The position numbers and the translations under genes were made by a program. 64,000 bases of DNA from NCBI GenBank assembly GCA_036510575.1, contig DATCDR010000036.1, positions 54,161 to 118,160 of the forward strand, written 5' to 3'. The notes under the pieces are model-generated. The model was not told where the DNA came from. It did not search any database and saw only the letters and a program-made list of their open reading frames with translations. How positions within the stretch are numbered: the first letter of the stretch is position 1; each line of letters begins with the position of its first letter. Shown piece after piece: positions 34,070-40,544 of the stretch. The DNA comes from Acidimicrobiales bacterium (lineage in GTDB: Bacteria; Actinomycetota; Acidimicrobiia; Acidimicrobiales; Bog-793).

Positions 34070-34864
34070 CTAATTGCCGGACTCCCGGCTCCTCAGGAAG
34101 AACGCAGAAGTCGCCTCGGGCACCCACCCGATTTCGAAGAGCGCGGAGGGATCCGCTCGATCGTGCAGCTGCGGCACGGACGGGCCGCGATCGGGCGCGG
34201 CCGTAGATTCGACGCCGAGGGCCGAGACCAGCTCCTCGACAGTGCGGAGCTCCCCTGAGCCGATCTGGACGACACCGCGGATTCCGTGCCGGACGACCGA
34301 CACAATCGCACGCGCGACATCGACTGCGAGGATGAAGTCGTGCTCACTTCCGGGGGAGCGCAGCTCGATCGGCTCGCCCCTTCCGCGTGCGGCGATCGCC
34401 TCGGCAACGAGCGCAGGTCGGCCGATCTCGGCGTCGAAGACGTAGTACGGGCGGAGCCAGGTGATCTCCCCCGAGTCGATCGCGGACTGGAGTGCCAGAC
34501 GGATACTGATCTTCGACGACGTGTACGCATCGAAGGACTCCCCACCCTCATCGAGCGACGTCCCCGTCCCGATGAACCACGCGCCGGACGCCCTGCATGC
34601 TTGCGCGAGCTCGATCGAGGCGGCCACCCAGCGGTCGTTGTCCGGAGACGACCGGTACCCTGCAGTGCCGCTCGCCGACCACGCGAGATGGACTACGACG
34701 GTCGGGGCGTGCGCTTGGATCAGCGCGCTCGGCACCCCAGCGGACAAGAGATCATCAACCCCTCGGTCGACAAGCACCAGCCGGGCCTCGGGAAGGTCCC
34801 ACTGTTCGAGCACGTACCGCCCAATCAGCCCGGACGACCCCGTGATCAGAACGCTTGCGGCCAC
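34070..34864 (-). CDS. NAD(P)-dependent short-chain sugar reductase/epimerase (RmlD-like, candidate 4-ketoreductase)
   Basis: 264 aa, GTG start. VLITGSSGLIGRYV Rossmann motif and YTSSK (YxxxK) catalytic motif. Confidence 0.7.
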   Translation of the reverse strand: MAASVLITGSSGLIGRYVLEQWDLPEARLVLVDRGVDDLLSAGVPSALIQAHAPTVVVHLAWSASGTAGYRSSPDNDRWVAASIELAQACRASGAWFIGTGTSLDEGGESFDAYTSSKISIRLALQSAIDSGEITWLRPYYVFDAEIGRPALVAEAIAARGRGEPIELRSPGSEHDFILAVDVARAIVSVVRHGIRGVVQIGSGELRTVEELVSALGVESTAAPDRGPSVPQLHDRADPSALFEIGWVPEATSAFFLRSRESGN

Positions 34865-34925
34865 GGTGGCGCCCCACGATCGGTGAGGTGGGTCAGGTAT
34901 TCGGCAGAGCTCACACCGCTCCCCT

Positions 34926-35240
34926 TTACGATTGCCCTGTGTGACCGGTGAGAAGGACTCGCCGCCCCTCCCAGAAAGCCGGATCGGGCGGGTTCGTTCT
35001 GCTCACGCTCACTCCGTAACCCAAGGCGCCTTCGCGCTCAACCACAGGCGGTAGAAACCGGAGCAGACCATGAACTCGGTAAAGCCGTGCGCAGCGTAAA
35101 ATTATGCGGCAAAGCATCGGCTTCGCGCCGGCCTCGACCATCGGCTTAGAACGAACCGCGGTCTCTTCGGAGAGCCGGCTCCCGAGACAGTCGGCAAGAA
35201 TCACGATCTTCATCCCACCGAGCTCTCCCTGCGTGGACAC
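34926..35240 (-). pseudogene. Frameshifted, internally deleted relic: 5' part of rfbF fused to a short 5' fragment of rfbG
   Basis: MKIVILADCLGSRLSEETAVRSKPMVEAGAKPML aligns with intact RfbF MKVVILAGGLGTRLSEETSVRPKPMVEIGTKPIL. The homology continues in another frame (YAAHGFTEFMVCSGFY versus YAAHGFTDFLVCCGYK) after an in-frame TAA. The end, PDPAFWEGRRVLLTGHTG then stop, matches intact RfbG PDPTFWRGRRVLLTGHTGFKG. Confidence 0.8.
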
Positions 35241-38684: not shown

Positions 38685-39777
38685 GTTCACGACTACGCCT
38701 TTCCACCTGAAACCTGTACTCGTCGAGTTGCTCGCCAGTGAGCTCAGATGCCGACTTACCGGATTGAACTCCCATATACCAGGACAACGTGAGCTCGACT
38801 GCCTCTTGCCAGTCGAGCACGCCTGACCAACCAAGGTCCCGCATGGCAAGCGTGGAATCGAGGGTCAAGGTTGCCATTTCGTGGTAGGTCGGTTCAGCCG
38901 TGGCCACCCACGGCTGCTCGGGGAGGCTGCCGCCAAGGTCGGTCCAGACCTTTGCCGCAAGTGTGACGATGTCTTGCACGGGAGCGGCGTCTAATTCAGT
39001 CGGTCCGAAGTTGTACGACTTCGAGACCTGGAGGTCGGTGGCGAGTGACTCGGCGAACACCAAGTAGCCGCGGAGCGGTTCAAGCACGTGTTGCCATGGC
39101 CGTACTCCTGCCGGGTTCCGAAGAACAAGCGTCTCGTCCGCCGACCAAGCACGAACCAAGTCGGGCAACAGACGGTCGAGTGACCAGTCCCCTCCGCCGA
39201 TGACATTGCCTGCGCGAGCGGTCCCTAGCCGAGTGCCAGTCGAGGGCCAGGCGGCGACCACGAGTTCGGCGGCTGCCTTGCTGGCGGCATACGGATCGAG
39301 ACCCCCAAGAAAACTTTGCTCAGAGAACGGCGTGGACTGTCGCGGGTCGTACACCTTGTCGGTGGTGATGACGAGACAGGCGATGACGCTAGGTGTCTCG
39401 CAAGCGAACCGAACAACGTCGGCAGTGCCTTGGATATTGGAACGAAAGGTGCGATACGGATCGCTGTAGCCGACCACGACGAGCGACTGGGCAGCGAGAT
39501 GAAGCACAACTTCGGGCGCCAACTCCGCTGCTGCTTGCTGCCAAAGCTCGGAGGTAATCTCGCCCCGCAGATCATGCACCCGAGCGAGACCCAGCTGCTC
39601 CCATAACGACGGCGTCGTGGGAGGTTCGGGAAGCGAGAGACCGATCACCTCAGCGCCAATAGCATCTAGCCAATACGCCAGCCACGAACCTTTGAATCCC
39701 GTGTGCCCGGTCAGCAGGACCCGACGACCTCGCCAGAACGTCGGATCCGGAAGATGCTGGCGCGACTCTCCACTCAC
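38677..39777 (-). CDS. rfbG: CDP-glucose 4,6-dehydratase
   Basis: FWRGRRVLLTGHTGFKGSWLAYWL, TTDKVY and YAASKAAAE motifs. I chose the GTG at 39777, which forms a GTGA overlap with the rfbF stop. The track start (39858) lies inside rfbF. Confidence 0.88.
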   Translation of the reverse strand: MSGESRQHLPDPTFWRGRRVLLTGHTGFKGSWLAYWLDAIGAEVIGLSLPEPPTTPSLWEQLGLARVHDLRGEITSELWQQAAAELAPEVVLHLAAQSLVVVGYSDPYRTFRSNIQGTADVVRFACETPSVIACLVITTDKVYDPRQSTPFSEQSFLGGLDPYAASKAAAELVVAAWPSTGTRLGTARAGNVIGGGDWSLDRLLPDLVRAWSADETLVLRNPAGVRPWQHVLEPLRGYLVFAESLATDLQVSKSYNFGPTELDAAPVQDIVTLAAKVWTDLGGSLPEQPWVATAEPTYHEMATLTLDSTLAMRDLGWSGVLDWQEAVELTLSWYMGVQSGKSASELTGEQLDEYRFQVERRSREHA

Positions 39778-40544
39778 TGCTGCAACCACGGGGCCTGCCC
39801 GGTGGCCCACAGCCGATTTAGCTCGTCTCGGTCGCGCAAGGTGTCCATTGGCTGCCAAAAGCCATCGTGGCGGAAGCAGGCGAGTTGCCCGGCTGCCGCA
39901 AGATGCTCGAGGGGCTCCGCCTCCCAGGCAGTGCTGTCACCGGCGATGAGGTCGATTACTGATGGCGATAGCATGAAAAATCCGCCGTTAATCCAAGCGT
40001 CCCCCCCCTCCGGTTTCTCCTTGAAGTTGACGACCCGGTCACCCTCGATTTCGAGGGCTCCGAACCGAGCCGGTGGTCGGACGGCGGTCACTGTCGCCAG
40101 CGTTCCCTGCTCCTCGTGGAAGGCCTTCAATGCAGTCACATCGATCGGCCCCACCGCGTCGCCGTAGGTCATGGCGAAGACGTCCTCCCCGTCGAGATAG
40201 GTAGCGACGCGGGCAATCCTGCCTCCGGTCTGGGTGGTGTCGCCAGTATCGACAAGCGTGACGTTCCATGGCTCGAGTTCGCGGTGATACACCGTGACTT
40301 CACCGTTGGACAGGTCGAAGCTCACGTCAGACCCATGGAGCACAAAGTTCGAGAAGTACTCCTTGATTACGTAACCCTTGTACCCGCAGCACACCAGGAA
40401 ATCGGTGAAACCGTGGGCAGCATAGATCTTCATGATGTGCCAGAGAATCGGCTTGGTACCGATCTCGACCATGGGCTTCGGGCGCACGGAGGTCTCTTCT
40501 GAGAGCCTGGTCCCGAGACCGCCGGCAAGGATTACGACCTTCAT
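39774..40544 (-). CDS. rfbF: Glucose-1-phosphate cytidylyltransferase
   Basis: MKVVILAGGLGTRLSEETSVRPKPMVEIGTKPILWHIMKIY...WINGGFF...FWQPMDTLRD. ATG at 40544; GTG at 40562 is an alternative. Confidence 0.9.
   Translation of the reverse strand: MKVVILAGGLGTRLSEETSVRPKPMVEIGTKPILWHIMKIYAAHGFTDFLVCCGYKGYVIKEYFSNFVLHGSDVSFDLSNGEVTVYHRELEPWNVTLVDTGDTTQTGGRIARVATYLDGEDVFAMTYGDAVGPIDVTALKAFHEEQGTLATVTAVRPPARFGALEIEGDRVVNFKEKPEGGDAWINGGFFMLSPSVIDLIAGDSTAWEAEPLEHLAAAGQLACFRHDGFWQPMDTLRDRDELNRLWATGQAPWLQQ

Follow-up and report, generated by a model that had tools for sequence, protein, structure and literature searches.

A candidate CDP-linked pathway to a C-methyl-branched 6-deoxyhexose and the relic of its duplicate in an Acidimicrobiales genome

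Described pathways and the locus

The closest described system is the four-gene operon of Bacillus cereus ATCC 14579, which is reported by Li et al. (2017, J Biol Chem 292:7636) to encode a cytidylyltransferase, a CDP-glucose 4,6-dehydratase, a C-methyltransferase dependent on S-adenosylmethionine (SAM) and a 4-reductase. Its products are said to be CDP-3-C-methyl-6-deoxygulose (cereose) and the 4-epimer (cillose), with the D-gulo and D-allo configurations. To our knowledge, the CDP branched-sugar cassette is known enzymatically from Bacillus only. Here we analyse a related locus in a stretch of 64,000 nucleotides (the window) from an Acidimicrobiales bacterium. The window is a part of contig C36 (DATCDR010000036.1) of a metagenome-assembled genome (MAG) of 3.46 Mb that is 93% complete (GCA_036510575.1). 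The genes rfbF and rfbG, a C-methyltransferase gene and an RmlC-like epimerase gene form a chain on the minus strand, and a short-chain dehydrogenase/reductase (SDR) of 264 residues, SDR264, is encoded about 2 kb away.

We consider it likely that this locus encodes a pathway to a CDP-linked 3-C-methyl-6-deoxyhexose in which the stranded SDR264 is the reductase. RfbF would convert CTP and glucose 1-phosphate to CDP-glucose, and RfbG would convert the latter to CDP-4-keto-6-deoxy-D-glucose. The TylC3-type enzyme would then methylate C3 via the enolate adjoining the 4-keto group. The RmlC-like protein would act as an epimerase, most likely at C5, since the methylated C3 carries no proton and only C5 is still exchangeable. 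Finally, SDR264 would reduce the 4-keto group. The predicted product is a CDP-6-deoxy-3-C-methyl-hexose feeding the surrounding polysaccharide island. It would probably belong to the L series, as follows from the candidate 5-epimerase and as is said of CDP-vinelose of Azotobacter. Further O-methylation of the product is plausible, because a gene of an O-methyltransferase family follows the SDR gene in the nearest related locus and a zinc-ribbon methyltransferase gene follows it in the window.

An earlier note on this DNA had predicted a CDP-6-deoxy-C-methyl-hexose, and at the level of sequence this prediction is supported by the CDP enzyme pair, by the methyltransferase family and by the recurrence of the cassette. 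The novelty that the note implied was overstated, as a CDP route to 3-C-methyl-6-deoxyhexoses has already been published for B. cereus. A sentence of PMC7725333 names the pathways to CDP-cillose and CDP-cereose. Like the B. cereus operon, the window contains a cytidylyltransferase, a CDP-glucose 4,6-dehydratase and a TylC3-type methyltransferase. On a B. cereus plasmid the genes are ordered rfbF-rfbG-methyltransferase-SDR, and their products are 51, 40, 40 and 24% identical to the window proteins; the plasmid methyltransferase falls into the same group as the window enzyme in the tree described below. Unlike the Bacillus operon, the window has an added RmlC-like epimerase, because of which a different stereoisomer is expected. 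The reductase of the window is also different, being compact (264 aa), distant and detached from the cassette.

The locus also resembles a widespread module, here called vinelose-type, comprising the same five enzyme families (rfbF-rfbG-C-methyltransferase-RmlC-like-SDR). Unlike that module, the window version is split: a convergent GT2 glycosyltransferase gene and the relic of another copy separate the fifth gene from the other four. CDP-vinelose of Azotobacter vinelandii has been known since the biochemistry of the 1960s. Our literature search found no paper that assigns genes to vinelose and no paper that characterises the epimerase-bearing version of the cassette. Searches for a CDP-4-keto-6-deoxy 3-C-methyltransferase returned no paper, and those for an NDP-hexose 3-C-methyltransferase of O-antigens returned only an in-silico paper on Coxiella. 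More tentatively, the epimerase-bearing module may be the genetic basis of the vinelose-type L-series 3-C-methyl-6-deoxyhexoses, with the 4-reductase provided here in trans from a decayed paralogous cassette.

Three other groups of pathways share parts of the set. The CDP-6-deoxy-D-gulose genes of Yersinia enterocolitica O:8 (ddhA, ddhB, the epimerase WbcA and WbcB) likewise represent a CDP-4-keto-6-deoxyglucose route without 3-deoxygenation, with an RmlC-fold epimerase and a reductase. However, they include no C-methyltransferase. The window epimerase matches WbcA, which acts on a CDP-sugar, at 9.5e-25 (5buv), and the dTDP-sugar RmlCs are closer to it, with E-values up to 8.8e-31. The CDP-3,6-dideoxyhexose routes (ddh/asc, rfbH/E1-E3) have RfbF and RfbG in common with the window, which has no E1-type pyridoxamine phosphate enzyme. 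No E1-type gene (PF01041) was found in the window. In the genome as a whole, at its 93% completeness, only two weak PF01041 hits of 33 and 24 bits turned up, both away from the contig of the window. Thus the absence of 3-deoxygenation genes claimed earlier stands for the E1 part; E3 was not searched for. Finally, the 3-C-methyltransferases of antibiotic pathways act on dTDP-sugars, mostly 2-deoxy or 3-amino ones. The window methyltransferase is like MtmC (4rv9), KijD1 (5t64), TcaB9 (3ndi) and TylC3 in having three domains, a four-cysteine zinc site and the YHEH motif; unlike the three plasmid-borne dTDP-linked relatives of the antibiotic enzymes in the tree, which fall outside, it belongs to a group of 44 rows.

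A shorter gene set is seen in Sinorhizobium meliloti, where a pSymB-type plasmid (L111, positions 5148-8221) carries only rfbF, rfbG and the methyltransferase gene. Next comes a gene for an AraC regulator, and neither an epimerase gene nor a reductase gene lies nearby. These pSymB genes have been printed as ddhA, ddhB and 'NDP-hexose 3-C-methyltransferase'. Matches to the methyltransferase were found in 59 plasmid records of Sinorhizobium.

The CDP cassette and its relatives

The genes of the proposed pathway are as follows.

36904-37437, minus strand: RmlC-like cupin epimerase, 177 aa (PF00908, 163.2 bits)
37434-38684, minus strand: TylC3/TcaB9-type SAM-dependent sugar C-methyltransferase, 416 aa (PF08421, PF13489, PF08484)
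38677-39777, minus strand: rfbG, CDP-glucose 4,6-dehydratase (TIGR02622, 351.8 bits, cut-off 278.45)
39774-40562, minus strand: rfbF, glucose-1-phosphate cytidylyltransferase (TIGR02623, 417.6 bits, cut-off 300.25)
34070-34864, minus strand: SDR264, compact extended SDR, 264 aa, GTG start (PF01370, 2.7e-13)

The four cassette genes occupy positions 36904-40562. Successive overlaps are 4, 8 and 4 nt long, at 39774-39777 (rfbF/rfbG), 38677-38684 (rfbG/methyltransferase) and 37434-37437 (methyltransferase/RmlC-like), so that the chain described in the earlier note is present with every gene in its place. The layout of the locus is not an assembly artefact, because it is reproduced by contigs of three runs. 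Contigs of run X4, a sample that is not flagged as a possible source of the assembly, reproduce positions 33900-35632 and 35641-37219 at 99% identity or more, and contigs of runs X2 and X3 (33900-35950 and 35921-37600) span the small gap between them. Runs belonging to several studies include contigs that match this sequence with an identity of at least 99%.

Both CDP enzymes score above the curated equivalog thresholds of NCBI, and thus the activating enzyme is a cytidylyltransferase, as had been proposed. RfbF matches 1tzf over residues 7-260 (1.4e-109), and the next nucleotidyltransferase reaches only 76 bits. RfbG matches 1rkx (2.4e-75) and 1wvg (5.3e-72) and contains the motifs GHTGFKGS and YAASK; its true start is the GTG at 39777, which overlaps the rfbF stop. 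Of these structures, 1tzf and 1rkx are the solved Salmonella and Yersinia enzymes.

The C-methyltransferase starts at the ATG at 38684 and has the three expected domains: a zinc-binding N-domain (PF08421, 8.8e-20) with the four-cysteine motif CRGCGS...CSECG, a class I SAM domain (PF13489, 4.2e-13) and the C-methyltransferase C-domain (PF08484, 1.7e-36). This domain structure is the one given in the earlier note. Over nearly the full length the protein matches MtmC (1.9e-70), KijD1 (1.6e-69) and TcaB9 (7.4e-58), and its FDTIYHEH is in register with the Tyr-His-Glu-His motif of MtmC. Work with TcaB9 mutants is said to have shown an active-site role of this motif. The matched solved homologues come from dTDP pathways. 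The window methyltransferase gene is the sole PF08484 gene in the genome.

The RmlC-like protein scores 136.6 bits with TIGR01221, below the RmlC equivalog cut-off of 155.75. An alignment with solved RmlCs shows that the catalytic His, Lys, Tyr and Asp positions are retained, as RGxH, K, Y and SxxD. A score under the cut-off despite the fold and the retained catalytic positions fits an RmlC-fold enzyme acting on another substrate.

Relatives of the methyltransferase were found in at least 597 stretches, with one genome scanned per species. The best 80 loci were kept and searched by tblastn with the window proteins and with the RmlA, RmlB, RmlD and second RmlC-like proteins of the same genome. 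The four genes rfbF, rfbG, methyltransferase and RmlC-like are contiguous on one strand in 43 of the 80 loci, from many phyla. The order is that of the window in 19 of these full cassettes, and RmlC precedes the methyltransferase in the other 24. The remaining 37 loci are mostly cut by contig ends or have one match short of the thresholds.

The next gene could be assigned in 35 of the 43 cassettes, as six have too little downstream sequence and two have no downstream open reading frame (ORF) on the same strand. By Pfam it encodes an extended SDR in 19 cases, a DegT aminotransferase in seven, a hexapeptide acyltransferase in three, and something else or nothing in six. The count of 19 may be one too few, since the next ORF in L059 is likely in the wrong frame and an SDR-like tblastn match is found there. 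These counts suggest that the usual module has five genes and ends in a gene for a 4-keto-modifying enzyme. All seven cassettes followed by DegT (L053, L060, L065, L079, L081, L101, L109) have the RmlC-then-methyltransferase order. As the aminotransferase takes the place of the SDR, their predicted products are CDP-4-amino-4,6-dideoxy-3-C-methylhexoses.

The nearest relative is L031, in a Marmoricola MAG. There the methyltransferase and RmlC-like genes are followed, with an overlapping junction, by a gene for an SDR of 255 aa that is 41% identical to SDR264; the methyltransferases are 50% identical. A PF04989 rhamnosyl O-methyltransferase gene after the SDR gene of L031 stands where the window has the gene at 33125-34018.

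A careful tree with 47 rows pairs the methyltransferases of the window and L031 (98/100) within the 44-row group (100/99). This group consists of polysaccharide-type enzymes, most of them chained to true rfbF and rfbG, and includes those of the B. cereus type. Outside it are three natural-product enzymes that are dTDP-linked and encoded on plasmids of Pseudonocardia and Streptomyces. The tree thus groups the window enzyme with those linked to rfbF and rfbG. No claim is made about the donor lineage of the methyltransferase, since the trees disagree on its fine placement. Of 36 genomes in this bacterial family, just five contain any match to the cassette, the best at 41% identity, and the distribution of the cassette in this lineage is therefore patchy.

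Ten further loci (L037, L046, L047, L070, L073, L074, L082, L086, L100, L103) have a nucleotidyltransferase 30-39% identical to RfbF and no clear rfbG. Their methyltransferases form one clade (89/94) that excludes the window enzyme, and may use another nucleotide or another path to the 4-keto sugar. In L115, a Brachyspira hyodysenteriae plasmid, the annotated order at positions 3524-7209 is rfbF, a radical SAM gene, an RmlC-family gene and the C-methyltransferase gene, and there is no rfbG.

The decayed second cassette and its surroundings

Between SDR264 and the intact cassette lie pieces of a second cassette and a glycosyltransferase gene, and a membrane-protein gene flanks the intact cassette on the other side.

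34846-34881, minus strand: RmlC' tail, last codons and stop, overlapping the GTG start of SDR264
34926-35003, minus strand: rfbG' pseudogene, codons about 5-27, then a stop
35012-35228, minus strand: rfbF' pseudogene, keeping about codons 1-62 with a frameshift (5 nt deleted) and, joined on by an internal deletion, about codons 248-262
35619-36584, plus strand: GT2 glycosyltransferase (PF00535, 3.9e-20), between rfbF' and DMT'
36583-36773, plus strand: DMT' fragment, a degenerate 5' piece of another copy of the DMT gene
40655-41779, plus strand: DMT-family membrane protein, divergent from rfbF (NF038012, 28.8 bits, cut-off 50; PF10639, weak)

From SDR264 outward the order is SDR, RmlC', rfbG', rfbF', then GT2 and DMT', followed by the intact RmlC-methyltransferase-rfbG-rfbF and DMT. 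The rfbF' pseudogene matches positions 1-50 of TIGR02623 (2.9e-12). Its nucleotide identity to rfbF is 76% across 161 nt, including a gap of 5 nt; its blastx pieces correspond to RfbF residues 2-56, 47-61 and 250-262. The junction with rfbG' keeps the stop/start GTGA. In rfbG', 18 of 23 residues are identical to RfbG residues 5-27 (E = 1.4e-7). The RmlC' tail agrees with residues 168-175 of the intact RmlC-like protein at seven of eight positions. The E-value of this match by itself is 0.59 when the whole search space is counted; a rough estimate of its chance is about 5e-4 when the 100 nt before the SDR start, a place fixed a priori, are compared with the last 20 RmlC residues. Moreover, the overlap of RmlC' with SDR264 has the architecture of the RmlC-SDR junction in the intact Marmoricola locus. 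The DMT' fragment matches DMT residues 47-109 in two frames (blastx, 3.4e-6) and is 88% identical to positions 40845-40893 over 49 nt (2e-11). The X4 contigs carry one extra C at 36653, inside DMT', which is their sole indel in 3.7 kb.

The relic behind the SDR gene reported in the earlier note is therefore confirmed, and it is larger than was claimed, as it also includes RmlC' and DMT'. The proposal that the SDR is the surviving gene of the decayed cassette likewise holds at the sequence level, because the RmlC' tail lies directly upstream of SDR264, with rfbG' and rfbF' following in order.

Such an order would result if the block had been duplicated in tandem and the copy on the SDR side had later decayed. 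Two related blocks, each with a membrane-protein gene and rfbF-rfbG-methyltransferase-RmlC, would once have stood side by side. Two large deletions and a frameshift would then have ruined the SDR-side copy; the deletion from rfbG' to RmlC' must have removed about 2.7 kb. The distal copy, which had no reductase gene of its own, would have stayed intact and would now rely on that old reductase gene, at a distance of about 2 kb. We consider it most likely that SDR264 serves the intact cassette. In the relic block 1425 nt, GT2 included, separate the collinear rfbF and DMT matches, against 301 nt in the intact block, and GT2 would have been inserted in the relic copy or lost from the intact one. 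The nucleotide identity of 71-88% suggests that the duplication is not recent. A recent duplicate carrying a copy of the promoter was considered and rejected, as only the 161 nt of rfbF' and the 49 nt of DMT' match and there is no match in the upstream regions. Comparison of the nucleotides just 3' of the intact RmlC-like gene with the start of SDR264 revealed no similarity that would mark the duplication boundary.

SDR264 itself appears functional. Its motifs are intact in the alignment with 16 cassette SDRs: the glycines G9, G12 and G15 of G-x-x-G-x-x-G, the Thr, and Tyr114-x3-Lys118. The AlphaFold2 (AF2) model has a pLDDT of 91, and the top Foldseek matches include GDP-4-keto-6-deoxymannose reductase, GDP-fucose synthase and RmlD. 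The earlier label 'RmlD-like' is correct as to the SDR family, but not as to RmlD: the scores with TIGR01214 (20.4 bits) and PF04321 (25.6 bits) are below the cut-offs of 224 and 27, and the label can be read as 'extended SDR' only. A strain variant (95-99% identity) in the run X8 extends across most of SDR264. It changes 16 codons, 10 synonymously and 6 non-synonymously, which, as a small sample, leans towards purifying selection. Although its label is RNA-Seq, X8 is probably a DNA run, and it covers 33900-34660 and a short piece only.

The gene directly 3' of SDR264 encodes another methyltransferase.

33125-34018, minus strand: methyltransferase (PF08241, 5.2e-13, only the second half of the profile matched)

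Its N-terminus is zinc-ribbon-like (CxxC...CxxC). The protein is tentatively a sugar O-methyltransferase, and either belongs to an unusual family or is partly degenerate.

The locus is part of a polysaccharide island that extends from 5 to 54 kb of the window and is rich in genes for glycosyltransferases, methyltransferases and membrane proteins. The GT2 at 35619-36584 is a possible user of the sugar. The 320 nt between this gene and the intact RmlC-like gene are gene-free, and there is no SDR gene 3' of the latter. The DMT protein at 40655-41779 is a candidate partner of the pathway by position only. Near rfbF, within 40655-43532, positions 42396-43532 encode a polyprenyl-phosphate glycosyltransferase-like GT2, similar to PgfS and ArnC (1e-81), which hints that some sugar of the island, whichever it may be, is moved on a lipid carrier. 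A scan of 32500-42500 for promoters and terminators yielded two promoter-like and six terminator-like sites, no more than in shuffled sequences.

Alternative explanations and meaning

Several observations weigh against a pathway completed by SDR264. The structural neighbours of SDR264 also include 4-epimerases and dehydratases, and its identity to the reductase of the B. cereus type is no higher than 24% (E = 1e-13); it is thus a likely rather than a certain 4-keto reductase. The convergent GT2 gene and pseudogene DNA lie in the approximately 2 kb that separate it from the intact cassette, and therefore its co-regulation with the cassette is not assured. The genome contains other SDRs as well as true rmlB and rmlD, so that the earlier statement that SDR264 is the sole 4-ketoreductase candidate is right for the neighbourhood and wrong for the genome. 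A separate reductase may even be dispensable, since MtmC, the best PDB match of the methyltransferase, also has 4-ketoreductase activity according to a passage of PMC3539893. The site of epimerisation is not readable from the sequence. Finally, the placement of the window methyltransferase inside the large group differed between trees: in one quick tree it fell into an Acetobacteraceae-rich clade (98), and in a second quick tree and the careful one it was at the base and poorly placed.

In one alternative reading the cassette makes the methylated CDP-4-keto sugar, which the methyltransferase itself or another SDR reduces, and SDR264 serves only the small operon that it would form with the next methyltransferase gene. 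This is unlikely, although the distance, the convergent gene, the dual activity of MtmC, the S. meliloti genes without an adjacent reductase or epimerase, the other SDRs of the genome and the 16 of 35 cassettes in which the next gene is not an SDR gene all agree with it. On the other side, the SDR is the commonest fifth gene of the cassettes. The Marmoricola locus couples an orthologue of SDR264 to RmlC-like, and the RmlC' tail indicates that SDR264 once occupied the same place. Moreover, with intact motifs and an excess of synonymous changes, SDR264 looks selected.

Even less probable is that the pathway is decaying, the cassette having been recently orphaned in a rearranging island and making no finished sugar. 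The three pseudogene pieces, the decayed membrane-protein gene nearby, the indel polymorphism in the relic and the absence of a close orthologue in the family could be read in this way. However, all five genes are open, of full length and with the family motifs kept, the overlaps are preserved, and the sequence recurs almost unchanged in the contigs from several studies.

The genome also has candidate partners for a dTDP pathway. A true rmlB (400 bits, above the cut-off) lies on contig C194 beside rmlD. The latter is split over contig ends (C194:17-622 and C14:6-209, profile positions 1-197 and 212-282), and therefore these contigs probably join at rmlD. An rmlA-like gene is on C7, and the second RmlC-like gene is on C214 between trpS and scpA. 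Thus a dTDP-rhamnose set elsewhere in the genome, which the earlier note had mentioned as an alternative partner, does exist in scattered form, but it does not displace the coupled CDP genes. That the methyltransferase and the epimerase use dTDP-4-keto-6-deoxyglucose made by these genes, with rfbF and rfbG adjacent by coincidence, is very improbable despite the characterised homologues, which come from dTDP pathways, because the four genes are translationally coupled, the coupling to true rfbF and rfbG recurs across phyla, the three dTDP-linked enzymes stand apart in the tree, and the rml genes lie in a housekeeping context with an RmlC-like gene of their own. In addition, an enzyme of this family from B. 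cereus has been reported to be CDP-dependent.

We therefore retain the CDP pathway with SDR264 as its reductase as the likely explanation. The uncultured peat and soil bacterium would likely add a C-methyl-branched 6-deoxy sugar to a surface glycan. The pathway is of a known kind, and the thinking on how it works is unchanged. The CDP branched-sugar cassette is spread over many phyla with an extra epimerase, and we found no definition of its product in the literature searched. If the vinelose reading is true, this would be among the commonest uncharacterised nucleotide-sugar routes of environmental bacteria; at least 597 species-level genomes encode a relative of the methyltransferase. The locus would also be a natural case of a 4-reductase supplied in trans by the last survivor of a decayed paralogous cassette. 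The wreck of the twin cassette would then record the remodelling of a sugar island, in which a block was duplicated, one copy was lost piecemeal, and the gene that had never been duplicated stayed essential.

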